Below are positions 5,783 through 62,824 of a stretch of 64,000 bases of DNA, one piece after another. The stretch covers positions 265,918,001 through 265,982,000 of the forward strand of contig OZ024742.1 in assembly GCA_964016885.1 (NCBI GenBank), read 5' to 3'. The translations under genes and the position numbers were made by a program. Below the pieces are notes generated by a model. It worked only from the letters and a program-made list of their open reading frames with translations, did not search any database and was not told the DNA's origin. How positions within the stretch are numbered: the stretch's first letter is position 1; each line of letters begins with the position of its first letter. This DNA is from Eledone cirrhosa (taxonomy: Eukaryota).

Positions 5783-6156
<374 letters not shown>

Positions 6157-7001: not shown

Positions 7002-7003
<2 letters not shown>

Positions 7004-7123
7004 AACCAGTAAGACCCCGACAGCTGAGCTCAAGCCGTTTCGACGGCTAATTCTGGACTCAGAATTCAGTCCCGAATTAGCCGTTGAAACGGCTTGAGCT
7101 CAGCTGTCGGGGTCTTACTGGTT

Positions 7124-7125
<2 letters not shown>
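7002..7125. repeat. Second copy of the 124 bp palindrome (2 substitutions in the right arm)
   Basis: Same sequence and loop orientation as 5974-6097. The right arm has GTCCCGAATT and CCGTTGAAAC. Confidence 0.9.
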
Positions 7126-8458: not shown

Positions 8459-10354
8459 TCAGGATTTGGGCACCATGGCCCATTCGAGAAGAGAATTACT
8501 GTTTGCGGAGACATATCCGGGTGTGGGTGGTTTGTCCGGGATTACTTGGAGGAATTTGTCCAAAGACTTCTTGAATTTTGAGTGGTCAGTTTCTGTTTTG
8601 ACGTGTCCTGGTGTGATGTTGAAGAGAGCAGGGCCGATTGAGGTGAAATAATTGTGCCGTATTGTTGTTATGAGTTGCGATTTAGATTTTTGAATGGGAC
8701 GGATAGCACGGGGCCCAAGCCTTGGGTGTATCTTGAAGGCGATGCCAACATCATTTGGGCAGTGATGATGGAACATTTTCCACATCATGCAGATAATATA
8801 ACGCTCACGGCGACGTTGGAGTGAGTAAAGTTTCAGGTTTTCCAATCGACCCCAGTAGTCAAGGTCTGACATGCCATCTATCTTTTTCGTGATTGCCCTT
8901 TGAGGAGCTTCAAGTTTCATGATACTTTGTTTCGTGTGGGGAGACCACAGTGGACAACAGTATTCAAGGTGTGGTCGGGCGAAAGTAGAGAAGAGAAGGA
9001 TAATGGTGCGGGAATCTCTCGACTGGAAGGTTCTGAGGATCCAGGAACACATTCTGCGGGCCATGTCAACTTTGCTGCTTATATGCGTGGTCCAGCTTAT
9101 GTTGCTGTCCACGGTTACTCCCAAGTCTCTTCCGGGGGGAAGGGAGTACGGGAGTTTCAGAGCATCCTCTTTTCCAAAGTGGATCAGTTCGAATTTGTCC
9201 TCGTTCAGTAACATGTTGTTCTTTTCTGCCCATTGGGTAACAGCCAGTAGGTCTGACTGAAGGCTTATCCGGTCATCCACGCCATTGATGACCTTTTGGA
9301 GCTTGGAATCATCAGCGAAAATTTTAATGTTGCTGTGTTTGATGATGTCAGTGATGTCATTAATATAGATGATGAAGAGAAGTGGGCCCAACACAGTGCC
9401 TTGTGGGACTCCACTACTGACTTTGGCTGGGCTTGATTTGACTCCCTCAACTACAACATGTTGGGTTCTGTTTGACAGGAAGCTCTTGATCCACTGCAGC
9501 AGCTTTCCAGTGACACCAATATTGGACAGCTTTCTCAGTAGAATGTTATGATCAACCCTGTCAAAGGCCTTGCTGAAATCAAGGTAGATAACATCAGTGT
9601 TGGAACCCTCTCCCAAGGCTCTCAAAATGTCATCAAAGTGATGCAGTAGTTGCGTCAGGCAATCCCTTCCATTACGGAATCCATGCTGGTTGGAGTTCAG
9701 CATATTGTTACTCTCAAGGAAGTGGGTCATTCGCGATCTCACCACTCGCTCAAATACCTTAATGATATGAGAGGTGAGTGAGATTGGACGGTAATTCACG
9801 GCAAGGGATTTGTTTCCCTTTTTGAAAACTGGGACAACAGACTGGGATAGAAGGTTTTCTGGCACATATCCAGCATCCAGTGAGTTCCGCCACAGATTGG
9901 CAAGAGGAGAAGCAAGTTGGTGTTGACACGCCTTCAGGACACAAGCAGGGAACCTATCGGGACCTACTGCTGAATTATGCTTGATTTCCTTTATTGCCGC
10001 CAAGACATCAGGGGCGCCAAACGTTATGTCCGATAAGGTGTAATGGGGAGTAACATCGCCGATACAGCCCAGATCGGCCATATCAGGATTGCTGAAAACA
10101 GAGCAGTATTGTTTCTGCAGTATCTCACCCATGGTTTTAGCATTGTCTTGAAGAGTGCCATTTTCATCAATTAGAGGGCCAACAGTAGAGCCAGTGATTT
10201 TGTGTTTTTTTGCAAATGAAAAGAACACTTTGGGATTGAGTTTGGTCTTCTCAATGGCCCAGGCCTCTTCAGCTCTTCTCTGATTGTTGATGAGGGACAT
10301 TATGTTGTTTTGGAGGTTATGTTTTTTAATCTCTAGTGATGAAATGGCAGTCAA
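8459..10354 (-). pseudogene. LINE ORF2 reverse transcriptase region
   Basis: Motifs NYRPISLTS, QHGFR, YLDFSKAFDRVDH, SGVPQGTVLGPLLF, FADD, RDLGV and SLQRRRERY. Confidence 0.92.
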
Positions 10355-11420
10355 GTTGATGTGTTGCTGCTGACAGTATTTCAGCTTGTTGATTTTTTTT
10401 GTTCGTTCTCTTAATTTTTCTGATGAGCGTTTTTCTATTTCTAGGGATTCTGCTCTTAGATTTGTTTATAGTTCTTAATGGGGTGTGTTTATCACATATG
10501 TTTGTAACAGTGTCCACAAATGTCTGCCAGGACTTTTTGATGTTAGTGGGTGTATGAGTGTGCGTGAAGGACCAGTCGACATGTGCAAGATCATGACTGA
10601 TCGCTTCCCAGTTTGCATTGTGGAAATCCATAGCGTCAAACGGATGGACAGGAGAGATGACATTGGGTTTGTATATTGGACGGTGGAATCTCAGATCACA
10701 GAGATCCATGTCATGATCAGAGAGTAGAGTTTTCTCCACTGCAATATTGTGGATATTGTCAGTGTGATTGCTGAAAATTAAGTCTAGGACGTTTTTGTGG
10801 CACCTCGTTGGTTCGAGCACTAGTTGGGATAGGAAGAAATCATCCATGAAGTCAAGAAGTGATTCCACAGCTTCCCTGTCAGAGGTTGAGGCAGAAGAAC
10901 CTGGTGGCAGGGTGTTTGTGGACCAGTCAACTCCGGGGAGGTTGAAGTCCCCCATCATTAAGATGTTGTCAGGGTGACACTCTTGGATGAAACACTTTAT
11001 GCTGTTGAGGCATTCCTTGAAGCATGGTACAGGCGTTTGGGGTGGCCTATAGAGCCCAACTACTAATAGGTTGTTGGTTTGACTGAATACAGTGACTGCC
11101 TCACAGTATCCATTAGTGAATATGTTCATAGCCTCTGTTGAGAAAGAATTATGGACATAAATGGCAGTTCCGCCCTTTCTTCTGCCAGCGCGATCAGCAC
11201 GGATGGCTTTGAAATTTTTCACTTTCACCTCGGCTTCCAAGTGGAGGTTACTGAGATGGGTTTCAGTGAGGACGAAGAAAGGGATGTGGTTTGGATGGAC
11301 ATCAATCCAGTCCTCCAGGAATTTGATCTTCCATTTTTGAGTATTGGTGGAAGGGCTGATGCCTTGGGCGTTAAGCAAAAATGTAGAGGCGAGAGTGGAT
11401 GGTTTTAATTGTTTTGGTGT
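10326..11420 (-). pseudogene. LINE ORF2 apurinic endonuclease region (frameshifted relative to RT near the poly-T at about 10393-10400)
   Basis: Motifs LNAQG, LTETHL, DR...[25 protein letters not shown] and SDH. The I/Y-rich N-terminus of the listed ORF is microsatellite. Confidence 0.88.
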
Positions 11421-11570
11421 GTTGTTAATTTGTTTGTTTGTTAATGGCAGCAATGGGAGTTTGTGCAGTGGGGTGATAGTGGAGGGTGGTGCTGGGTGAT
11501 AGCTCGAATGTTTTTTTCCAGTTCTTTTGCCAGATTCATTATGGCTAAAAAAGAGGAAGAAGTTTCCTTT

Positions 11571-12107
<537 letters not shown>

Positions 12108-12332
12108 AATTAAGTTTAAAAAAAAATTACATCTACGTATGCATACTGAAATACTAGTGTGTATATGAATACACACACGTATACATATGTATATGTAACA
12201 AGTCTTTCACTGGTTGCTTTACTGTGAGCACCCAGCTATTCTGTATGTAAACACACAGACAAACCGGTTTTTAGAGTCACACTGGTTTTTGAGGGAACAC
12301 CTTCCCTCTATTCTCCAGAAAGCCAGACAAGG

Positions 12333-12377
12333 AATATTGAACTAGTTTCGTTGTTGTTACAACTCATCAGCAATATT
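12333..12377 (-). ncRNA. Type I hammerhead ribozyme, canonical core
   Basis: Minus strand: AATATTG-CTGATGA-GTTG taacaa CAAC-GAAA-CTAG-TT-CAATATT. Helix I has 7 bp, helix II has 4 bp, helix III is the palindrome ACTAGT, and the site is GUU. Confidence 0.85.
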
Positions 12378-12418
12378 TACCTATCTACCGGCGAAATTTA
12401 ATTTCGTTTCGTCATTTG

Positions 12419-20341: not shown

Positions 20342-23300
20342 TTCTTTGAGTCTCAGTCATTGATGTTATTTAACTGGAAAGTTTGTTGAAATGAATATCA
20401 AGCCGCTACCTGCAGCCTCAGATATTCAGCACGTATCGGAGGGTTCTTGCTGTTCCCAGCAAACATGCCTTTTGAAGTGTTCCAAAAAGCGGAGCTGAAC
20501 TAATCTTCTTTAACCATCTTTGGAAACTCTTTGAGATAGGACCTAGTGCGCCTATGACAATCGGGACGACCTTGATTTCATGGCAGTTCCAAATCCTTTT
20601 TAACTCCCACTTTAAGTCCTGGTATCGGTTAATTTTCTCCCTCTCCTTTTCTTGCACTCTCGTGTCAAATGGGCAGGCTAGATCTACAATCAGGCACGAT
20701 CTTTTTTGTCCAAAACCACCAGGTCAGGCCTATTGTGTTCTAATTACTTGTATGTCTTTATCCTAAAATCCCACAGCACCTTCACCTGATCGTTTTCTAT
20801 CACCGACTCTGGCTTATGCTCATACCACTTCTCAGAATGTGGTAAATTGTTTACTTTGCATAGATGCCAGTGGATCACCCTACCTATCACATCATGTCTC
20901 GAGCCTTTATAGTGAGTCTGGGCTAAGTGTTTACACTCGGATACAATGTGAGCCACAGTCTCCTCTCTCTCTCTCTCCACAGATCCTACACAGTGGGCTA
21001 GCCTCCTCCTTGTAAATATGGTGTTTCACCCACTTCGTTCTGGGGGCTTGCTCTTGTGCAGCCATTAACATTCCTTCTGTAGCTTTTTTAAGGTCTCCTC
21101 TTTTTAACCAGTTCCATGTCTGTGGATCTCTAAATTCAATTTTCCTAAAGAAGGTACTATGAAGGGATTTTTCATGAAGGTTGCTCCTTCTCCTTGTTGT
21201 TATTTCCTCCTTGGTCGTCCCCTGGTCTATTGTCTTCTCCTTCAGTACAATTTTGAGCATTGGCTCCCTACTGTCAGTCACGTATTTGTGCAGGTTGTTT
21301 TTCTCCATCTGAACACAGTCCTCTATGCTGATAAGACCTCTTCCACCTTCAGATCTCTTTAAGTAGAGTCTATTGACATCACTCCTCTTGTGGAACCTGT
21401 TGTAGATAGTCAATAGCTTCCTAGTCTTCCTATCCATTTCTTTTTGTTCAGCAACATTCCATTTCAGAATTCCCGCGCTGTACCTAATAATAGACACAGC
21501 TCGGGAATTCACTGCACTTATGACATTCCTACTATTTAGATGTGATTTTAATACGCTCCTTACTCTCCTTATATACTCAGATCTTGTCAATTCCTTCATT
21601 TTTTTGTTCTTGATGTCATCTGCCTCCAGAACACCTAAATATTTGCATTCCTCCTCAGTGTCAATTTCCTTTATCATCTCACCTGTTGGTACCTGGATTC
21701 CGTTGCTTCTGCTCAATTTACCCCTCTTCATCACTAGGACTCCACACTTATTAATACCAAATTGCATACATATATCATTGCTGAAAATACGGACAGTGTC
21801 AACAATACATCCAACTCCTTCTCACTCTTCCCAAAGAGTTTAAGATCGTCCATGAAGAGGAGGTGGTTGATGGTAAGCTCTCCTTTTCCCAACTTGTATC
21901 CTGCTCTCACTTTTCGCAGGGCAAGGACAAACAACAGAGGGGACAAACTATCTCCCTGGAAGATACCTCTCTTGATCTTCATGCCTCCAAAGGATTCTCC
22001 ACCCGATGTTAACTCTGTTTCCCAGGACTTCATACTTTTGCTCAAAAACTGTATGATGTTATTGGCCACCTTGAAAATCTCTAGGCTTTTGGTTATCCAA
22101 GAATGAGGTACCATGTTTTGTAATCTATCCATCCCATGGCAAGATCACTGTGCCTCCTCTTGCAATTCTTCATTACCATCTTATCAATAAGTAACTGATC
22201 TTTTGTACCACGGGACTTCTTTCGGCATCCTTTCTGTTCGTCCGGTAACAAGTTGTTTATGTGGAGGTGATGGTAGATTTCCTCAGACACAATGCTTGTT
22301 AACAGTCTCCACATTACGGACAGACATGTGATGTGCCTACAGTTGGTAACATCATTACCCTTGATTCGGTCTTTCATTACCAGAACTGTGGTACCTTTTT
22401 TGTCAACCACTCTGGTACCTCACCCAACATCAAGCACATTTGTCAGTTTCGGGTGGAGGGATGTTATGTTTTTAATCTAATACCCTTGCACACCATCTGG
22501 GCCTGGTGATTCCCAGTTGGTTAGTTTTTTGGCCTGCCCTTTAAGAGTTTCAACTGTGATACTCAAATCAGGTTGTTGGTGTTTACTAATCTCCTTTTGA
22601 ACTGTTTCAATCCAAACTGCCTGACCATCATGTTCAATATCCTGCTCCCATATTCCTCTCCAGAATGTCTTAGTCTATTCCACCTCAGGGAACACTTCGT
22701 TGCCTCTTTCTTTTCCTTCAAGCTGTCTAAACAACATCTTCTGGTGTTGTTAAACATGCGGTTCTGTCTATACTGACTGACTCTGTTCTTATACCGCCTA
22801 ATCTTTGCACTTTTTGCTACAATGCGTTGCTTCAGTTCCTCTCTGATAATATTTAGCTTTTTCCCCCTAGTTTTGTATTTTATTTCCAATCTATCTTTAG
22901 TGTCTATGTTTTGTAATGCCCCATTCAGTAAGGACTCAAGCTTTCCAATGTCTTTTCTCATTTCCTTGATTTGACCATTCAGTCGTTTCTTCCACCAAGG
23001 TTATGATCTTTCTTGTTTGTTGTTTCCTCTCGTTTTTATGCCAAGTAATTTCCTCACCGCATTTGCGGTTGCTTTGAGGATATTGTTGCATTGGTGAAGG
23101 TTCCTCGCCTCAAGGTATGGGATGACTTTGTTTACCTTAGCTGTTGTTTCTTTTAACTTTTTCCTGTCTACAAATCTTAGGTTCATAGGTTTTCCACTAT
23201 CATTGTTCCTTTCATCTACCACTAAGTTCAGGATATCAACCAGATCTTGTCCTAGCCAGTCAGCATTCATTTCCTCAATGGCCGTATCTTTGTTCCAGAT

Positions 23301-25691: not shown

Positions 25692-25823
25692 TATATCAAT
25701 ACATATTATATAACCACTTATGCAAATAGAGATTCCTTCAGGTGCATATATATATATATGTATATATATGCACCTGAAGGAATCTGCATTTGCATAAGTG
25801 GTTATATAATATGTATTGATATA
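25692..25823. repeat. About 130 bp hairpin with a TA-rich centre
   Basis: TATCAATACATATTATATAACCACTTATGCAAAT...CCTTCAGGTGCATAT is mirrored downstream. Confidence 0.85.
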
Positions 25824-25833
25824 TATATAAATG

Positions 25834-25918
<85 letters not shown>

Positions 25919-25922
<4 letters not shown>

Positions 25923-26208
25923 AGTACATCTACCAACATATGTGTACAGATGTACACTCATGCTAGCAAATATATAAGTTATGTCTTAGTACCTATGTGG
26001 TTCTATGCAGGTGAATGCAGAACAATTATATGAAAGACGTAAAATAAGAAAATTTTAAAAATTAAAAATCAACTTACTAAAATTTTCACTCCAACTAATT
26101 AGTTTCTGTAATGAATTCTCTATAGTTATATATATTATGTAACTATATTTATCCCATTACAGAAACTAATTAGTTGGAGTGAAAATTTTAGTAAGTTGAT
26201 TTTTAATT
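25919..26208 (-). mobile_element. Family-F non-autonomous element, folded back at hammerhead helix II
   Basis: Homologous to 28303-28500. The inverted arms are 26060-26113 and 26155-26208. Confidence 0.8.
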
Positions 26209-26380
26209 ATACATGTATATATATATATGTATATTTATATTTGTATATATACATATAAAATAAATAAATATATATATATATATATTTTAATAAATATTTG
26301 CTCTACGGTTCTTATATATTTGATATATATTTATCCTTATCGAGCCCTTTTTGGATTTTAGTCTTCAAATTTATTATTAT

Positions 26381-28255: not shown

Positions 28256-28302
28256 CTATATATATATATATATATATGCATGTGTATATATATATATATA
28301 AA

Positions 28303-29007
28303 AATTAATATATCTACTGACATGTGTATACAGATGCATACCTACGCTAGCAGATATATATGTTTTGTCTTAGTAACTTTGTAGTTCTATGCAGGGGAAT
28401 GCAGAACAATTATATGAAAGACGTAAATAAGAAAGTTATGAAAATTGACTTACTTACTAAAATTTCACTCCAACTAATTAGTTTCTGTAAGGGGATAAAT
28501 ACAGTTATGTAATACCTGTAGAGAAGCCTTACATCATCAGGGAGTCTATTCTCAGCTAAGCCACCAGGCAATGCGGGGACACTGGAACCTTATATAACAA
28601 TAAATCAGTGGATGGAAAAAAGCGAAAAAATCGAGCGGGGCTAGATTCTAAGCACTGAAAAATTCGCTGCCTCCTTGGTCAAGTGGCAAATTCAAAAGAA
28701 TTAATCACGTGACACTGAGGTTAACCAGCTTGGAGTGGGGGTGCTATTAAGACAGAGCCTAGCCACTACTATCAGTCACAGTAGTAATTTGGCAAATTTT
28801 GCTCAACAAATAATTTGGAGAAGAATATAAAGAATTAATATATCTACCGACATATGTATACAGATGCATACCTACACTAGCAGATATATATATGTTTTGT
28901 CTTAGAAACTTTGTAGTTCTATGCAGGGGAATGCAGAACAATTATATGATTAGTTGGAGTGAAATTTTAGTAAGTAAGTCAATTTTCATAACTTTCTTAT
29001 TTACGTC

Positions 29008-29015
<8 letters not shown>
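28303..29015 (-). mobile_element. Family-F non-coding element: 530 bp hammerhead-bearing unit, partial tandem copy and inverted tail
   Basis: 28303-28418 is repeated at 28833-28949. 28949-29015 is the reverse complement of about 28411-28478. (TA)n flanks both sides. Confidence 0.8.
28467..28545 (-). ncRNA. Type I hammerhead ribozyme, canonical core, large loop II
   Basis: Minus strand: ACTCC-CTGATGA-TGTAAGG[loop]CCTTACA-GAAA-CTAATTAG-TT-GGAGT. Helix I has 5 bp, helix II has 7 bp, helix III is palindromic, and the site is GUU. Confidence 0.85.
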
Positions 29016-29052
<37 letters not shown>

Positions 29053-38147: not shown

Positions 38148-38233
<86 letters not shown>

Positions 38234-38265
38234 AGATCAAAAGATGGTTAAAGGAGTTCAATATA

Positions 38266-38332
38266 TTTTATTATGCGCATTTCAAAAACAAACATCATCA
38301 AACAATAATATTTGTGTTTTCATCAGATAAAA
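38266..38332 (-). ncRNA. Type I hammerhead ribozyme (3' terminal-repeat copy)
   Basis: Mirror copy of 42043-42109. Confidence 0.75.
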
Positions 38333-39074
38333 CAGGAGAACATGATATGAAGGCTAAAAAAAACACTTGTTGATAGTGCAGTTTTAAATCAACATATGAA
38401 AAGTGGTTTTAGATTGATGTGTGATATTGGGAAAAATATTTTATTTAGAGAGGGGGGGAGAGAAAAGGATGAAAAGGGAAGGAGATGAGAGGGAGAGATG
38501 GGTGATAGAGAGAAAGAGATAGTTTTTATAACAGAGAGGAGATATATTTTATATAGAGGGGTTGAAAACCGTTGGAAGATACTGTATAAATTAAAAATTT
38601 TGAAAATTAACGAAGGGAGGATATGTGCGAGGAAAAAATATATTATATTTAGGGAGGGGTGGGGGTGGAAAGGATGAAAAAAAGGGGAGGAGATGAGAGT
38701 GAAGGTGGAAAGGGAGAGATGGGTGATAGAGAGAAAGAGATAGTTTTTATAACTGAGAAAAAGATATAATGTTTTAATATAGAGAGGTTGGGAACCGTTG
38801 GAAGATAATGTATAAATTAAAGGAATTTGAAAATTAACGAAGAGAAATTATGTATGGAGATAGAGAGAAAAAAATAACGAAGGGAGATTATGTATGGAGA
38901 TAGAGAGAAAAAAAATAATAATTGTGGGTGAATATTCAAAAGGAGAAATGTAGGAATTTTAAAATTAGCAAAGAGAAAAAGTTTATGTATAGGATTTGAG
39001 AAAAATAATGTGAAGTTAGAGTTTTTATATTGAATTCATATGTATTAATAATGAGTTCGTTGATGGGGAGAAAA

Positions 39075-39512
39075 AAATAATAATAAATTAAGGATGAAAT
39101 TGAGATTAAAAAGATTTATGATAGAGAGAAAAAATAATAATGATTGCGGATGAATACTCAAAATGTCAAAAACAAATGTTATTGTTTTACGAGGAGATAT
39201 AATGAGGGTGATGAGTAAACGGGTATTATAGAGTGTATAATGCCCTTTAAAGTAAGGTAGATGGGTATATTTTAAAGAATATATGAGTATATATTAAAAA
39301 AAATATATAATAATAAATTAAGGATGAAATTGAGATTAAAAAGATTTATGATAGAGGGAAAAAAAATAATAATGATTGCGGATGAATATTCAAAATGTCA
39401 AAAACAAATGTTATTGTTTTACGAGAAGATAGGATGAGGTAAATGAGTAAACGAGTACTATAGAGTGTATAATGCCCTTTAAAGTAAGGTAGATGGGTAT
39501 ATTTTAAAGAGG
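39075..39512. repeat. About 233 bp imperfect tandem duplication in the PLE 3' UTR
   Basis: TAATAATAAATTAAGGATGAAATTGAGATT...GGGTATATTTTAAAGA occurs twice. Confidence 0.85.
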
Positions 39513-39565
39513 TGTATGTATATGTGCCTTTGAGAAAAGATTCTAAATTGATAAAGAATTGAATA

Positions 39566-41376
39566 TTAACTGTATACTTTGTGAAAAGTTCTATGGAATT
39601 TATGCAGGCAGATGGAAAACAAATCCGAGCGTCTATTTATTATGGATTCTAGGTTAGAGATAATGGTAAATTTTTCATTTAGGCAGAGATTACAGATTTT
39701 AGATAGAGAACTGTTCAAGTACGAGGATGCAGAAGAAATCTTTTTCCAAAAGATGTTATATTTAATGTTTTTGTCTTTTAAGGACCATATGAGTTCTGAG
39801 AGAGCAGTGTTAGTTCTTTTAAGTTTGTATTTGAAAGATGAATGATGATTATAGAGACGAGCTTTAAAAGAGGTGGAAGTGGAGCCAAAATAGGTGAAGG
39901 AGTTGGTGCTAGTTATAATTTTACATTCATAAATTAAGTTTTTATCGAGGCAATGGTTGTTGAGAGGACATTTATTTTTAATGCGGCAGTTGCAATTAGA
40001 GAGATTATTAATGAGTGATCTAGTGTTATCTATAGAAGGAATTGGATTGGAGAAGTTGTTTGCGATAGGAATAATAGGAATAATAGTTTCTTGATTTAGA
40101 GTTGGATTATGAACATTTAGCGAAGTTGTGTTTGACGTTGCATTTGGGTTTACAGAAGTTAGCCTAGGGTTTACAATGACGTCAGGAGTACTATTATTGT
40201 TATTATGAGATTCAATATTGGAAGGAAGAGATTTAGTATTTAATATTTTGTTGTTGTGTTTAGAAATGATGTTGGAAATATTGGAGGATGTAGAATACGA
40301 AAATTTAATGGTGTGTTTGTTAAATATTTTACTATAGATATGTGAGGGAGGGAAGCATTTATTTAAGGCACTAAAAAATAATTTAGGAATATTGTTATTA
40401 ATAGAGATGGAGAAAGGAGCATTATACCAGATTATGTTTTTGTATCTAGGTCTTTTATTAAAATTATTGGAATGGTTATGATTAAATATTCTACTGTAAG
40501 TTTTCCTAGAATTTGTTTCTTTATTATATTTGATTTTATCTGGATAGCCGGCTTTAGAAAGTGCGTTATTATAGTAATTGGCGTTAGCATCAAAGATGTT
40601 TTTATTAGAAGATATGTTAGATATTCTATTTCCAATATTATTAACTATAGCATTCTTGATATTGGTAGGATGGTTAGATTTAAAGTTAACATAATTAAGA
40701 TTCTCATTGTTTTTATGGTAAGGGTAATATAGGCCAGTGTCAAGATTAAGAGATACATCCAAGAAATTAGCTAGTTTGGTACTATTATCAAATTCAATTT
40801 TTAGGTTATGTTGGTTAAAGAGATTACGTATATTGTTCTTAATAATATTAAGTTTAACTATATTGCAATTTAGGATAGTAAAGAGTCCATCGTCACGATA
40901 AATTCCACCGCGAAGTTGAGGAATTTTCCGACTCAAAGAGTTCAAAATGAAGATACCAATTAAATCAGTCAATTGGGATGAATCGGATGCTCCCATTGTG
41001 ATGTCGAAGTTGTTAGAGGTATCGGCTCTGGTCCAATATTCGTTGTTGAACTCTAGGATGGTTTTACGTGCGGTGAGGATGATGTGAAGTTCATCTGTGG
41101 TGATGTCAGAATATTTAAGTGCGAAAGATAGAGCATTATTGAGAAGTGAAGGCGAAATGGAGGAATAGTAGCTGGCAATATCGAATTGAATAAATTTTAG
41201 TTTGTTTTTATTATCCAATTTGTTGAACCAGCCAATCACTTCAGAAGTACCAAACCATAAATTTAGGTTTAAAGAAGAGCAATTAGAACTAACCTGTGGG
41301 ATAATCCTATCCAAGATGGCTTTACTAACAACCCCCAGATCAGATTTAGAGGGGGCGATTAATCTAACAGGTAGTT
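39566..41376 (-). CDS. PLE RT + GIY-YIG endonuclease (open frame, N-terminally truncated)
   Basis: PVRLIAPSKSDLG lies upstream of the listed ORF. Motifs FIQFDIASYY, ITMGASDS, IYRDDG, FLDV, CNCR...CPL...C, LIYEC...YFGST...FKARLYNH and CNLCLNEK...INRRS. Confidence 0.9.
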
Positions 41377-42042
41377 AAATCCTATACATAAACTTTTTCT
41401 CTTTGCTAATTTTAAAATTCCTACATTTCTCCTTTTGAATATTCACCCACAATTATTATTTTTTTTTCTCTCTATCTCCATACATAATCTCCCTTCGTTA
41501 TTTTTTTCTCTCTATCTCCATACATAATTTCTCTTCGTTAATTTTCAAATTCCTTTAATTTATACATTATCTTCCAACGGTTCCCAACCTCTCTATATTA
41601 AAACATTATATCTTTTTCTCAGTTATAAAAACTATCTCTTTCTCTCTATCACCCATCTCTCCCTTTCCACCTTCACTCTCATCTCCTCCCCTTTTTTTCA
41701 TCCTTTCCACCCCCACCCCTCCCTAAATATAATATATTTTTTCCTCGCACATATCCTCCCTTCGTTAATTTTCAAAATTTTTAATTTATACAGTATCTTC
41801 CAACGGTTTTCAACCCCTCTATATAAAATATATCTCCTCTCTGTTATAAAAACTATCTCTTTCTCTCTATCACCCATCTCTCCCTCTCATCTCCTTCCCT
41901 TTTCATCCTTTTCTCTCCCCCCCTCTCTAAATAAAATATTTTTCCCAATATCACACATCAATCTAAAACCACTTTTCATATGTTGATTTAAAACTGCACT
42001 ATCAACAAGTGTTTTTTTTAGCCTTCATATCATGTTCTCCTG

Positions 42043-42109
42043 TTTTATCTGATGAAAACACAAATATTATTGTTTGATGATGTTTGTTTTTGAAATGCGC
42101 ATAATAAAA
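42043..42109 (+). ncRNA. Type I hammerhead ribozyme (inverted terminal-repeat copy)
   Basis: TTTTAT-CTGATGA-AAACA[...]TGTTTTt-GAAA-TGCGCA-TA-ATAAAA. Helix I has 6 bp, helix III is the palindrome ATGCGCAT, and the site is AUA. Confidence 0.75.
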
Positions 42110-42924
42110 TATATTGAACTCCTTTAACCATCTTTTGATCTTATATTATGCATACTCCAGTCCCACAAACTGTAGAGTGCTTCTTATCCGATATCTGCAT
42201 TGCTTTATTGTACTACAATAAAACTCACCTCCTACATATATATATATATATATATTTAGAATGTGTGTGTGTGCGTGTGTATGTAAAATATTTTATTATA
42301 TCAAGATTTCGTTTTCTGAATACACCTGTTTCCCTTGGAGGAACCTTTCAGATTATCATTGGGGCCATATTAAAATGAACTCTGGTATTTTCCTAGTTCT
42401 CCTTTTTCTAGGTGTTGCGTATGTTAAAAATCTACAAATGTTAGAGGAATAATCTGTAAAAGCGGGAAGGAGGGGTGAAGAGCAAAACAAGTTAATAGAC
42501 ACTCTACACAACTTAATAGACGCTCTAACACTTGTAGATATTTAATATACGCAAAATTTAGCTTCCTATAAACTATAAATATAACATAAGTTATCTCCAT
42601 GCACGTGTAATTTTAAATTATAAAATAAGGGGTTATCCCCCTTTACACTCCTTCTACACACCTAACCACTAATAATTATTGCTCTTTTGCTGGGGAACTC
42701 TACAAAAAAAAGCAAAGAAAAATGAAGTACTAAGCAAATACCAGAGTTCATTTTAATATGGCTGAACTAATGAATTGAGAGAGTCTATTCAGATCATCCT
42801 AGTGAAAACGGGCATTCGAAAAATGTAATGTTGGATCAATAAAATATTTCATATAATACAAATCCCTCCTCGAATTGAATGTTCTACCTACTTGGATACT
42901 TACTACGAAATTTAACTACACACT

Positions 42925-47111: not shown

Positions 47112-48579
47112 AGTGGTTACACAGCAGTTAGTTCACCATACCGAGAATAATTGTTTCACCTTAGCGGATCCTCAGTTCGTAATGGACATGGTTATACGGA
47201 ACAGCAAGGACAACCGTACGAACGCGCATGCGCAGAAACGATCACTTCACACAAGCAATACTAAATTGCGTGCGAGAAGTGTAAGGGAGATAACTGCGAA
47301 AGTCCGAAAGTTTCTAGTTGATAAGAAAATTAGGATGTTGTTGTAATTCAATCAGGAGATTTGTAGTTATGTAAGAGGTGTTTCCAGACGTGTGGACAAC
47401 GTGTGAAGAATTCAATTCTTGAGTTTAGGCAATCACTATAGTGTAATCTCTTTAGAATATTTATTCGTTCATCAATACATAGTCCACAGGACTCATGCCA
47501 CCCTCCCACTGTTTTTAGAAACTTCGTAAATAATATCAGTACTAGAATCTCAAACTTCTCCTCTAATAAGGCTATCTTTGACAGAGCGGCACCCTACTAT
47601 AACACAGCGCTAGCTAACAGCGGCTTCTCGCAACCTATCACTTACTCCCCCACTAACAACATCAGAAATAAGAAAACAAAGCGTAACAATAGACAAACTA
47701 TCTGGTTCTCTCCTCCCTTCTCACTCAACGTTAAAACCAATGTAGGCAAAAAATGTCTATTCCTCTTAGATAGGCACTTTCCCATAGGTCATAAATACCG
47801 CTCCATCTTTAACCGACACAAAGTAAAACTAGGATACTCCTGCGCTAAGAACATGAAGGCCCACATCACCAACAGCCCTAAGAGCAACACCCCACCAGGG
47901 TGCTCTTGCCGTAAGCCCGAAGCTTGTCCCCTTCAACAGCAATGCAACACACCCGCTGTAGTTTATGAAGCTGTGGTCACTTCCAACCGACTAAATCAAC
48001 CACAGGAGGTCAAATCATATGTGAGTATGGCGGAGGGACGATTTAAGGAACGCTTCCTGAACCACCAGTCGACTTTAAGTACCCGGACAGACGTTCATCC
48101 ACGAAACTCACAAGCCACGTATGGTCCCTCAATGACTCAAGTATAGACTACTCCATTCAATGGAAAGCCATCACTAAATCCAAGCCATACACAAGGGGCA
48201 ATCCGTTGTGTGGACTATGTATTGATGAACGAATAAATATTCTAAAGAGATTACACAATAGAGATTGCATAAACTCAAGGAATGAATTCTTCACACGTTG
48301 TCCACACGTCTGGAAACACCTCTTATATAACTACAAATCTCCGGATTGAATTACAACATCCTAATTTCCTTATCAAAACTTTCGGACTTTCGCAGTTATT
48401 TCCCTTACACCTCTCGCTCGCAATTTAGTATTGCCTGTGTGAAGTGATCGTTTCTGCGCATGCGCGTTCGTATGGTTGTTCTTCCTGTTCCGTATAACCA
48501 TGTCCATTACGAGCTGAGGATCCGCTAAGGTGAAACAATTGTTCTCGGTATAGTGAACTAACTGTTGTATAACCACTTC
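47110..48579 (+). mobile_element. Naiad-type PLE 3' fragment with about 375 bp tail-out inverted repeats
   Basis: 47110-47488 is an imperfect reverse complement of 48208-48579. Coding motifs IWFSPPFSLNVKTNVG, IFNRHKVKLGYSC and CSCRKPEACPL...VVYEA...FKERFLNH, with a frameshift. Confidence 0.88.
48510..48547 (+). ncRNA. Minimal type I hammerhead ribozyme (mirror copy 47142-47179 on -)
   Basis: CGAG-CTGAGGA-tCC gctaa GGt-GAAA-CAATTG-TT-CTCG. Confidence 0.75.
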
Positions 48580-48660
48580 TACCTAACTCGTCCCATGGAC
48601 TGAGTGCTCTACCACTACGGATATTACCTTCCAGTGTTCTACCACTATATATATATATAT

Positions 48661-48736
<76 letters not shown>

Positions 48737-48737
<1 letters not shown>

Positions 48738-48954
48738 TAATTTAATATATCAACTAACATAAGCGCACAGATGCACGCCCATGCCAGCAAATACACAGGT
48801 TATGTCATAGTACCTAGGTGGTTCAATGCAGGAGAATGCAGAACAATAATATAAAGGACGTAAAATAAGAAAATATTTTTTTTAAAAAAATTAAAAAAAA
48901 AAAAAAAAAATTTTTTTCTTACTTAAATTTTCACTCCAACTAATTAGTTACGTC

Positions 48955-48960
<6 letters not shown>
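48737..48960 (-). mobile_element. Diverged family-F copy truncated at hammerhead helix III
   Basis: Shares GAATGCAGAACAAT...GACGTAAAATAAGAAA...TTCACTCCAACTAATTAGTT, followed by a short inversion ACGTCCTTTATA. Confidence 0.7.
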
Positions 48961-52975: not shown

Positions 52976-53452
52976 ACCATTGCCACACACTCACAATGGC
53001 ACACTAACCCATAACATTCATATACACACCACTCACTCGTCTGTACGCACTTTTAACAAACGTTCGCATGCACTCGCTTCTTTTGAGACACACATACGTA
53101 CATCCATACACACACACACACACTCACGTTTACATATACACACACATCTTACCTTTCACCATCCCCTCCTAGACTTTGAGTATTTTGCTTCCCCATCCAC
53201 CCCCCTCTCCCCAATCCTCCCTTAACCCACTCACACACACTATCACACCCATTCGATCCCACCACCCACCCCGTACCTACACAACCCCCTACCCCCTTTA
53301 TTGTTACATTAAATTTTTGTTTTTAATTTTGTCATTCATATTAATTTTTATTTTTATTTTTCTCTTCATATAGTGTTTTTTTACTTTGTGACTTCCCTCC
53401 TTAAAATTCTCCTTACTCCCTCTCGGAGTCCCTGTTCTTCCCCAATCCGAAC

Positions 53453-53488
53453 TTTCCTGATGAAGGACCTATGTCCGAAACGTTGAAA
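53453..53488 (+). ncRNA. Minimal type I hammerhead ribozyme in a PLE terminal-repeat remnant (about 52990-53570)
   Basis: TTTC-CTGATGA-a-GGAC ctat GTCC-GAAA-CG-TT-GAAA, with palindromic helix III ACGT. Confidence 0.75.
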
Positions 53489-53563
53489 CACCTGTTCCAC
53501 TTCCACCAAGCGTCAACCTAATATAACTGTGCAATTGCCTCCTGTGTTTTGTTCGTTCATTTC

Positions 53564-53634
<71 letters not shown>

Positions 53635-53637
<3 letters not shown>

Positions 53638-53841
53638 AAAGAGTCAGTGCCCCGACGGCAGAGCTCAAGCCGTTTGGACAGCTATTTCTGGACTAGTTAG
53701 TCCAGAAATAGTTGTCGAAACAGCTTGAGCTCTGCCGTCGGGGTTCAGACTCTATTCCTATTACCCACTCTACTACCCAAAGTATCGAGTACTCTGGTGC
53801 GTTATAGTCCACCTGGTTCCTTACCACACTTCCTTCGTTAT
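53635..53841 (+). mobile_element. Diverged member of the palindrome family with an 83 bp 3' tail
   Basis: The imperfect hairpin at 53635-53758 is homologous to 5974-6097. The tail TATTACCCACTCTACTACC...CCTTCGTTAT is shared with 62740-62824. Confidence 0.85.
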
Positions 53842-53865
53842 CTATATATATATATAAACTACCAC

Positions 53866-54073: not shown

Positions 54074-54149
54074 GCTATTACCGGCGGTTTCGCTTTACAA
54101 AGGGTTAGAGATTCGGAGAATTTCTAAAAAGTAAAGTTCATCAGATAGC
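54074..54149 (-). ncRNA. Type I hammerhead ribozyme, canonical core
   Basis: Minus strand: GCTAT-CTGATGA-aCTTTAC[...]GTAAAGc-GAAA-CCG c CGG-TA-ATAGC, with a GUA site. Confidence 0.78.
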
Positions 54150-54608
54150 TATTTCCATACAGTAGAAACTAATCCCACAATCTGTAAATATATTGCCAAA
54201 TACCAGCTGGTATGAGTAAGACCGTTAAAATGACCCACACATGAACTGGGCACTAGAAAAAGCGGGAAATATTACAGGCGCGTTGATGGTTATTCTGCTA
54301 AAAAAATAGCAGTAAGTAGCAACGAATTTTTTTCTCAACATAGATCGGAGAATTCATAAAATGAGGTAAATATCTCTCTGAGTACTAAGTACCCATAGAG
54401 ATATATAGTGTGTCTATAATATAATTGTTGTTCAATGGTACTAATTCGAGATACCAGAACTATGTGGCCAGTTCATCTGTGGGTCATTTTAACGGCCTTA
54501 CTCATACTAGCTTCTTAATTTTTATAGTTCTGGTATCTCGAATTAGTACCATTGAACACCAATTATATTATAGACACACTATATATCTCTATGGGTACTT
54601 ATATTACC

Positions 54609-54679
<71 letters not shown>

Positions 54680-54682
<3 letters not shown>

Positions 54683-57005
54683 GGTAATATCAGCAAGAAA
54701 ATTGTTGATCGAATCATTCCGCAAATTAGAAAATTTGTAACACTTACATTATGGGATAACACTTCCCAGGTTATTGAATGGTTCACTAACATCGAGAATA
54801 AAAACTCAGATTCGTTCATACAATTCGACATCGATTCTTACTATTCTTCGATTTCTCCAATTCTCTTAAACAAAGCACTGATCTTCGCCAGAAATAGATC
54901 GGATTTATCTATTGAGGAAATCAACTTCATAACTCACGCTAGAAAAACCTTACTAAACTTCCAAGAAGAACACTGGACAAGAAACACATATAATAACTTA
55001 TTCGATATAACGATGGGATCCATGGACTCTGCTCCAGTTACAGACCTCGTTGGACTATTTCTCCTCTATAATATTCATTCCTCCTTTCCCTACCTCAAAG
55101 GTGGTCTTTATCGGGATGATTGTCTATTGATATCTAACAATCTTAGCAATTCTAATATAGAGAAAAACAAAAAACAAATTAGAAAATTCCTCAAGAACTA
55201 TTACAACCTTAACATCACCTTTGAAAACACCTCAAAAGTAGCTAACTTCCTTGACGTTACCTTAGAACTCTCTACGAATATTTATCAACCTTACCACAAA
55301 CCCAACCAGAATCTACACTATGTACATTCACGCTCTAACCACCCTGGCTCTATACTCAAAAACTTAGTATACAACATATCTCTTAGACTTTCTAAATTAT
55401 CTTCCAATGATGATATATTTTATAAACATGAACCCTTCTACAACGAGGCCCTAACTAGAACTGGATATAAAGAAAAATGTTCATATATCCCCAACACTAC
55501 TATGGACCAAACTACAAAACCTAGCAAAAACTACAAACACCAAAACATACCATCGAAACAAATGCCTAATGGAGTAATTCCTACCACACCAAACAACCGA
55601 AAAACCACAACAACTATTACTACACGATCTATGACCAATGTTATCAACTCACATATGACTACCAAACATTCAACCTCTCATAATCTACCCAATAATAACA
55701 CCAAATACAACCACTGCAATTTACCAAATTCCACAAATACAAATACTAACCATAGGAATTCTTCTAGACCACAGCACATTAATATAAGTGGGAATAATAA
55801 CTTAACTAAACACCGCAAAATAAACATAACATGGTACAACGCACTCTTCAACCTGCAAACTATTGGACAAATCCCCAAAAAATTCTTCGAAATTCTACAT
55901 AAACATTTTCCACCAAACCACAGATGCCACCAAATATTTAACAGATATACTGTTAAATTCTCATACTCTACATCAAACAATCTCCAGCAAAAATTAAGCA
56001 ACGACAACATTTATAAATTTAAAAATAATATGGCCACACCACCACAACATAATTTAAATAAGACTGCACCTTTTAAATGAACAAATAATACAATCCTTCA
56101 ACCTGGAAAACGCAACCATCCAAATCACCAACACAAAAACAACATAACACAAAATCACAATACAACCCTAGCACTAAACCACCCACAAAGCAGCATTCAT
56201 TCCCTCGCTAACATTAATTACAATAAGAATAGCTCAATTATTAATGGGAATTATGTAGGTTGTAATTGCAGAAATAGGAGCGTTTGCCCCTTAAATGGCA
56301 ACTGTTTGATTAATAATGTAATATATAAATGCACTGTGTCTACTACTGACTCCAACAAAACATATATAGGATCTACATCGAACACATTTAAGAAAAGATA
56401 TTACGCACACTCTTGTAGCTTTAACAATACTAAACTAGCTAACACCACATCTTTAGCTGAAGCAGTAAATAACTATAAAAAGAAGAAAAATAGATTTCAA
56501 GCTATCGTGAGATACCATTCTGCAAAGAACTCCATATCTTGGGAACAGGAGAGAATGCAGATTATGTTTCGGGGAGATCTTGGAAATTACTAAATCTAAG
56601 GACGATTTATTGAATAAAAGACAGGAACTGATTATAGCTTGTAATCACCGTATACGAAAAACATTTAAGTACTATAAACCTAATTAAATATTCTAAATAG
56701 CAACTCACTATAATTCTATGTAACGTACCATTTGTTAGTATCCCCTTCCCCTAATTATACGCCTTCCTGCTTATTTTTTTATTTTTTAACCTTTTAATTG
56801 TTTAGCTTCCATAGATTCATGCGTTACTAACTAAGGGCAACAAGGTATAACCACCTGTAATTGCATGGGTATACATGTATCTGTGTATGTATGATATGAG
56901 AATATATATATGTGTATATATATATGTGTGTATATTGTATGTGTGTGTATATGTGTATGTACATGTATGTGTGTGTACATATATATATATGTATGTATAA
57001 GTGTG

Positions 57006-60415: not shown

Positions 60416-60507
<92 letters not shown>

Positions 60508-60511
<4 letters not shown>

Positions 60512-60720
60512 AATTAGTATATCTACCAACATATCTATACAGATGTATACCTATGCTAGCAAATATATATGTCATGTCTTAGTAACTTTGTGGTTCTATG
60601 CAAGGGGATGCATAACAATTATATGAAAGACGTAAAATAAGAAAATTTATAAAATTAACTTACTAAAACTTTAGTAAGTAAGTTAATTTTATAAATTTTC
60701 TTATTTTACGTCTTTCATAT
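60508..60720 (-). mobile_element. Family-F copy ending in a roughly 100 bp fold-back
   Basis: Homologous to 28833-28949 and 28411-28460. 60621-60666 is mirrored at about 60670-60720. Confidence 0.8.
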
Positions 60721-61019
60721 ATATATATATATATATATTCTATCAATCAGTCGACGGAACAGCCCGCTCGTGGAATCAATGTGCAAGTGGCTGAATATTC
60801 CACAGTCACGTGCATCCTTAACATAACTCTCAATAAGAATCAAGTGTGACAACGCTGGGCTTTTTTGTGCAACTTTGTCTTTTGTTCTTGTTCTTGTTTT
60901 TTTTTTTTGCGGCTGAGTGGACATAAGCAACAAAAAGAACACAACACACTATCGGGAAACGAACTTTTAGCCTTCCGATCGTGAACCGAACACCCTAACC
61001 ACTAAGCCACGCGTCTTCA

Positions 61020-62677: not shown

Positions 62678-62679
<2 letters not shown>

Positions 62680-62820
62680 AACGAGTAGGACCCCGACGGC
62701 TGAGCTCAAGCCGTTTCGACGGCTAATTTTGGACTCGTTCCTATTACCCACTCTACTACCCTAAGTATTGAGTCCTTTGGTGCGTTATGGTCCACCTGGT
62801 TCCTTACCACATTTCCTTCG

Positions 62821-62824
<4 letters not shown>
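62678..62824 (+). mobile_element. Palindrome-family member with a single arm joined to the 3' tail
   Basis: The left arm GGAACGAGTAGGACCCCGACGGCTGAGCTCAAGCCGTTTCGACGGCTAATTTTGGACTC is fused via ACTC to GTTCCTATTACCC... It lies within (TA)n. Confidence 0.85.

Follow-up and report, generated by a model that had tools for sequence, protein, structure and literature searches.

A perfect palindrome at hammerhead helix II in Eledone cirrhosa, a two-arm copy of a non-coding tandem element

The stretch of DNA analysed here (the window) comprises 64,000 nucleotides of Eledone cirrhosa contig OZ024742.1 and contains, at positions 26060-26208, a perfect inverted repeat with arms of 54 bp each and a loop of 41 nt (26114-26154). 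Folding of this segment gives z = -22, with none of 200 shuffles equally stable. The original prediction placed a fold-back exactly at helix II and loop II of a hammerhead ribozyme, and the structure is real: the two arms overlap across six helix II bases, and the loop and right arm are homologous to the intact hammerhead at 28467-28545 on the minus strand (92% over 64 nt in a formal alignment). As had also been described, the CTGATGA core is missing and its place is taken by the reverse complement of the downstream sequence, so the 26060 copy alone cannot form a ribozyme. The family sequence of the left arm runs on past the palindrome for ~140 nt, to ~25915, where (GA)n and (TA)n begin. Unit positions given below refer to a natural 537-nt unit starting at CTGATGA, with helix II at 9-14 and 56-61 and the predicted cut at 76|77; hammerhead numbering follows the type I consensus (see also PMC4209133). 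The insertion is composed of the following parts.

25915..26113, minus strand: long arm, unit positions 56 to ~264 by mapping onto the unit, with its end at fixed site 2, next to (GA)n/(TA)n.
26108..26208, plus strand: short arm, unit positions 9-113 by mapping onto the unit, ending 28 nt before fixed site 1 and followed by TA-rich DNA.
26108..26113, no strand: six-base junction microhomology GTAATG, which in the right arm is the 5' strand of helix II and in the left arm is its 3' strand in reverse complement.
26114..26154, plus strand: native loop II of subfamily B with its inner stem, by alignment and folding.
26155..26181, plus strand: hammerhead 3' half, read from the sequence as CATTAC-A-GAAA-CTAATTAG-TT-GGAGTG, with the predicted scissile bond at 26175|26176.

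Both arms have exact counterparts elsewhere in the genome. The right arm (26108-26208) matches loci L032-L034 at 101 of 101 positions and the left arm (25919-26113) matches locus L039 at 195 of 195, which indicates that the copy is young and that its arms are perfect for this reason; homogenisation of the arms after insertion is not needed and was dropped as an explanation. The palindrome belongs to subfamily B of its family and the copy at 28467 to subfamily A, the two being ~83% identical, so the latter is a cousin and was rejected as the source. A second palindrome (25700-25815, centred on a TA run) adjoins the insertion on its left. Scanning of the whole window for inverted repeats yields output dominated by TA arrays.

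A search of the 3.0-Gb genome with a 531-nt query returns tandem and inverted pieces at many loci (in the best 40 of 2,245 candidates scored), and exact matches to a 30-mer of the ribozyme 3' half put the number of ribozyme copies genome-wide at 5,882 or more. Measured core to core, the units are 525-571 nt long and non-coding, and they fall into four subfamilies (A-D) that are 76-87% alike; 280 loci contain 50 natural core-to-core units, arrays of several units among them. Non-LTR retrozymes are defined by tandem units that are non-coding and that each include a complete type I hammerhead, an arrangement also present here. The unit length exceeds the ~170-400 nt generally expected of these elements, so that the family is at most a long member of this group. 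An open reading frame with reverse transcriptase and GIY-YIG endonuclease domains, as an autonomous Penelope-like element (PLE) would have, is found neither in the family unit nor in the 26060 insertion, and a comparison of the family sequence with the coding elements of the window gave no match; no coding partner was found. Further family copies lie in the window.

28296..28949, minus strand: long arm of a subfamily A insertion, 1.2 units, ending at site 2 and holding the intact hammerhead 28467-28545.
28949..29016, plus strand: short inverted arm of the same insertion, ending at site 1 before (TA)n, with a junction overlap of 1 nt.
48727..48960, no single strand: subfamily C copy, a minus-strand site-2 arm with a stub of ~10 nt ending at site 1 (the stub read by eye).
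60500..60721, no single strand: two-arm copy with its junction at the AAAATTTT hotspot (positions 83/83).

Intact copies such as 28467-28545 (minus strand) have the sequence features of a type I hammerhead, namely CUGANGA...GAAA...NUH with predicted helices I-III; a search of the whole window with Rfam at the gathering score gave no match. In 150 of 157 distinct intact motifs helix II consists of 6 bp closed by a C.A opposition. The original prediction had read the strands as TGTAATG and TGTAAGG, of which the six inner pairs hold and the seventh, a T-A, lies outside helix II: at 28533 it is a private change present in 1 of the 157 motifs, and at 26107, where intact copies read C before GTAATG and the 26060 copy reads T, it is part of the inverted arm. 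Pair 2 is TA in 91 motifs, CG in 39, AT in 23, and other in 4, and pair 5 is G-C in 87, T-A in 65, and other in 5, counts that reflect four related subfamilies and thus few independent events. The commonest types are all fully paired: GTAAGG/CCTTAC (50), GCAATG/CATTGC (35), GTAATG/CATTAC (23), and GAAAGG/CCTTTC (17). The T-A versus G-C replacement proposed as compensatory is therefore genuine among intact copies, because those of subfamily B read CTGATGA-C-GTAATG...CATTAC-A-GAAA; the 26060 copy cannot itself bear on the matter, because its helix II 5' strand lies within the palindrome.

Within loop II, an inner stem has three pairs changed on both sides, in an alignment of 24 intact rows chosen by helix II type plus the fold-back copy, where related rows inflate the counts and the 100% pairing of helix II is a selection effect of that choice. 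With compensatory changes at two helix II pairs and three inner-stem pairs, the claimed ribozyme fold gains support, and predicted helix II covaries across the four subfamilies. Helix III is palindromic in intact copies, an arrangement that fits type I motifs acting as dimers (PMC4209133, available text). Predicted self-cleavage may be affected by the additional C.A that closes helix II at its base; a mismatch at the same place is also known from an axolotl retrozyme family (available text of PMC7229834 and 10.64898/2026.07.22.740005).

The outer ends of the arms fall at two fixed unit positions, site 1 at ~141 and site 2 at ~261, with TA flanks. Exact site-1 ends running into TA repeats number 2,038 and 1,189 for the two patterns searched, both of which required TA, so that the counts cover TA-flanked ends only. 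The sample examined, from contig C1, was defined by a site-1 end with a TA run and takes in the first 100 listed of the 2,038 matches and 80 of the first 100 listed of the 1,189. Among these listed matches, 178 site-1 ends have an inverted partner in 118 cases, none detected in 53, a direct piece in 6, and no mapped arm in 1; the partner thus forms, at 118 of 178, the inverted 5'-truncated copy, head to head and with a one-sided tail, that characterises PLE-type insertion. Once six partners that run off the locus are set aside, 112 remain among the matches listed, 100 of which end at 250-266 (site 2), one at site 1, and 11 elsewhere. Forty-nine junctions from loci not chosen by their ends agree: 43 have one end of each kind, none has the same end twice, and six have an odd end. 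Two loci (L254 and L257, G000:C1 near 139513390 and 142713895) have two site-1 ends tail to tail across a short TA run. Hairpins just beyond sites 1 and 2 are not significant by folding alone (z -0.2 to -1.1).

The junctions between arms are rich in microhomology. Among the matches listed, 67% of the 66 insert-free junctions overlap by at least 2 nt (random joins: 18%) and 18% by at least 6 nt (random joins: 0.3%), and inserted bases occur at 34 of 100 junctions. In 42 of 100 listed insertions each arm has sequence that the other lacks, which rules out self-copying for either. Asymmetry exceeds 10 nt in 78 of 100 listed junctions, and near-symmetric junctions are also in excess in this set (14 of 100 within 3 nt versus 3.2 expected, and 22 within 10 nt versus 7.6; permutation, p = 0.0002), suggesting that fold-back or coupled stopping probably explains a minority of insertions. 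Divergence between the arms of 45 insertions, relative to that from the nearest other copy, is lower in 23, equal in 3, and higher in 19, a result that does not separate one-template from two-template models.

Joins at helix II are rare. A genome-wide search with the helix II junction pattern of subfamilies A-C gives four matches. Two of them, the 26060 locus and L064, join cleanly through 6 nt; L061 carries an insert of 9 nt, and L062 is an unrelated rearrangement. Comparable exact patterns, which undercount all classes, match 6 times for the helix III palindrome, not at all for helix I, and 82 times for the AAAATTTT palindrome at position 83, which adjoins the ribozyme on its far side. L061 (G000:C2:43333513-43336534) is a near-perfect palindrome centred on loop II, with arms of ~660 bp. 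None of the 99 sampled two-arm insertions among the matches listed is joined at helix II. Each unit contains 101-161 inverted matches of at least 6 nt, and 4 of the 99 sampled junctions among the matches listed use such a match outside positions 82-118; scaled to ~1,800 two-arm insertions, this predicts ~1-1.5 helix II joins, compared with two to three observed. Helix II is no hotspot and is used about as often as six-base inverted matches predict. Helix II or loop II as the favoured centre of fold-back was accordingly abandoned, with its two clean joins and one with an insert set against 82 at AAAATTTT, an outcome that the original prediction had itself named as refuting.

A different position attracts arm ends. 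Per base copied and among the matches listed, 5' ends lie in unit positions 77-95 3.7 times as often as elsewhere for site-1 arms (33/171) and 5.7 times for site-2 arms (21/100), with p = 3e-9 in both cases, and on a second pass over 77-95 the excess is ~4-fold. When a 19-nt window is slid along the unit, the maximum lies at starts 76-77 (52 ends, p = 2e-15, among the matches listed); the best window outside 55-120 falls in loop II, at 2-fold (p = 0.002, uncorrected). Each subfamily group has the excess (2.3-8.3 fold). The pile-up as a mere effect of the AAAATTTT palindrome was considered and dropped, since a weaker excess persists in non-symmetric junctions (2.3 and 3.0 fold; p = 0.018 and 0.005) and in single arms (2.7 fold; p = 0.02). 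Among listed two-arm insertions, passes stop in 77-95 in 20 cases of 120 and in 20 of 95, and the others read through. On the 3' side of the predicted scissile bond, then, there is a preferred stopping zone (0-18 nt), which suggests run-off on putatively self-cleaved RNA or stalling at helix I. The modal end at position 83 (13 ends among the matches listed) lies immediately 3' of helix I, where an A-run also begins, so that run-off with trimming, stalling at helix I, and microhomology choice look alike in sequence. In the open-access main texts covered, no paper was found that maps retrozyme junctions or arm ends to the cut site.

These observations bear on how the palindrome arose. It is a copy of the non-coding hammerhead tandem element, and its head-to-head arms were probably made at both cut ends of a TA repeat by a reverse transcriptase of the Penelope type and probably joined by annealing of six complementary helix II bases. 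A borrowed RT/GIY-YIG protein would cut both strands of the repeat, and each 3' end would prime cDNA at one of the two internal start sites. The site-2 cDNA would have ended at, or been trimmed to, the helix II 3' strand, and the site-1 cDNA would have crossed loop II; GTAATG/CATTAC pairing could then have joined the two cDNAs before fill-in. What is seen directly is two arms, two fixed outer ends, TA flanks, microhomology-rich junctions, and a loop carried on the short arm. Counting against this origin is the near-symmetric excess of junctions, which is what fold-back would be expected to leave in a subset of insertions. So does the search for a coding partner of the family, which yielded none. 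The short arm of the 26060 copy ends at 113 and not at site 1, implying an atypical start or a loss of 28 nt.

In L1 twin priming, two target ends prime cDNA and the inverted junction is joined by microhomology. In the present family, by contrast, neither start point varies, and the two arms often have hundreds of bases in common.

The snap-back originally proposed, in which a single cDNA extended through loop II, folded back at helix II, and served as its own template, would account for a junction lying exactly on helix II with perfect arms, and symmetric joins are in excess across the family. Its difficulty is the loop (26114-26154), which is in sense orientation on the short (101-nt) arm and antisense to the long (~200-nt) arm. 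A self-copying cDNA keeps the loop in its own orientation and its partner is never the longer, so the 26060 arms are not self-copies: the loop belongs to the short arm, and the other arm is ~140 nt longer than the short arm could have templated. In L064 and L061 the loop-carrying arm exceeds one unit and the geometry would allow self-copying, and L064 has arms that differ at 2 of 196 bases and by two gaps, which speaks against it. Rescue of the 26060 case by a later flip of the loop or deletion in the right arm, for which the atypical short-arm end leaves room, requires a second event in a copy with zero substitutions relative to its relatives. The long arm, moreover, ends at site 2 like 100 of 112 ordinary listed insertions, and helix II joins number two to three genome-wide and none in the 99 listed samples; a snap-back origin is unlikely. 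Overall, the ribozyme fold of the original prediction is supported, and snap-back and a loop II hotspot are not.

Equally improbable in our estimation is self-priming on an antisense template, the model put forward for rotifer Penelope elements, in which the resulting hairpin DNA is resolved by the endonuclease at two fixed sites and then inserted. The available text of PMC3846280 reads head-to-head repeats with junction palindromes in this manner, that of PMC8557442 attributes the tail to endonuclease resolution, and the observed loop orientation would follow if synthesis switched to an antisense molecule at helix II. Both tail boundaries are, however, reverse transcriptase start sites in vitro (PMC11167929). 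The asymmetry of 78 of 100 listed junctions and the inserted bases at a third of them do not favour a hairpin, and arm ends gather at the point on sense RNA at which a polymerase travelling 3' to 5' would encounter the ribozyme first.

Template switching is known to use short inverted repeats. A replication template switch at the helix II quasi-palindrome after insertion, or an assembly artefact, is nonetheless very improbable: public contigs matching 25915-26215 are short and none crosses the junction, but the independent locus L064 has the same junction between a site-1 arm and a site-2 arm, and the layout is that of the family's ordinary two-arm insertions.

Comparable anatomy occurs in other elements of the window. 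The hairpin at 5974-6097, for which the 26060 palindrome had been offered as an internal control, belongs to another family (47,796 exact motif copies) and cannot be so controlled: it has no native loop II, its centre being the loop II 3' side plus an 8-nt insert, and both of its arms stop at site 1. Intact members of that family have the core TTGA-N-AA in four of the loci examined, which we take to be a U3-A8 variant. All 18 two-armed insertions among 24 assessed by eye have one arm end of each kind, and none has site 1 twice; the 5974-6097 hairpin may be a true fold-back. It recurs at 7002-7125, ~1 kb apart, inside long TA arrays, and further copies with one site-1 and one site-2 arm each lie at 53636-53842 and 62678-62822.

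A coding Penelope-like element at 38226-42240 contains a 602-aa open frame (39566-41374, minus strand) whose nearest clusters are RT/GIY-YIG. It has a 773-bp inverted arm that is 99.9% identical; each arm contains a hammerhead (38326 minus, 42049 plus), and one of the two carries a tail of ~90 nt. This is the same anatomy as in the retrozyme insertions. Pfam searches with four PLE-like frames return no family for three and one GIY-YIG match below the curated cut-off (E 0.0004). At 47200-48600 there is a PLE-like fragment that has inverted copies at its termini and, at 47442-48146, a GIY-YIG-like frame. Hammerhead-like motifs of unrelated families occur at 53449-53495 (plus), 54100-54150 (minus), and 12340-12378 (minus), with such a motif at 54144 near a broken PLE-like frame (54680-56593). 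LINE-type reverse transcriptase and endonuclease frames are present at 8459-12206 and 20931-23000, one interrupted by TA arrays.

Self-cleavage may shape the insertions of this family. A wider reading, which we put forward tentatively and with some doubt, is that the genomic copies record hammerhead self-cleavage in vivo. About one-fifth of cDNAs per pass would run off at the 5' end left by the cut and be trimmed by a few bases to microhomology, with the remainder reading through uncleaved or re-ligated RNA. Together with priming from both target ends at two fixed sites, a single mechanism would then yield the inverted repeats, tails, and truncation points of PLEs, and animal retrozymes would integrate via PLE machinery. 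The value of the material lies more in the family-wide statistics of arm ends than in the 26060 locus, which in itself is unremarkable as the product of a known process. The family offers a large natural data set on how the tandem and inverted structures of PLEs form, and it bears on a second question open in the literature, the role of the hammerhead in the PLE cycle.

The family resembles metazoan non-LTR retrozymes, as described in the available text of PMC7229834 and 10.64898/2026.07.22.740005, in its non-coding tandems with one type I hammerhead per unit, palindromic helix III, low GC, and thousands of dispersed copies. It differs from them in unit length (525-571 nt here, ~300-390 nt there) and in a loop II of 34-41 nt with a covarying inner stem. 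The term "inverted" leads to no passage on insertion structure in either source, its one match being in a reference list. Inverted copies and one-sided tails are already known from PLEs, and with endonuclease-containing members, on the available text of PMC8557442 and PMC3846280, the family shares partial tandems, an inverted 5'-truncated copy, a head-to-head junction, a tail at one end, (TA)n targets, and a hammerhead near the end. Unlike those elements, it has no open reading frame and a tail of ~120 nt instead of 30-40; its tail sits on exactly one arm in nearly every complete two-arm copy, and its junction positions have been located and concentrate at the ribozyme's 3' foot.

The closest biochemical parallel is the PAc protein of anole Poseidon, which in vitro cleaves both DNA strands, extends each of them, and begins synthesis at two sites within the RNA that delimit the tail (PMC11167929); two such start sites, the use of both strands, and AT-rich targets are common to the two systems. 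The rule of one arm end of each kind links this in vitro result to real insertions and ties the retrozyme to PLE integration by anatomy, not phylogeny. Ribozyme cleavage is dispensable for Poseidon PAc in vitro, where no RNA reads end at the cut (PMC11167929), whereas genomic arms in the present family end by the predicted cut ~4x more often than elsewhere.
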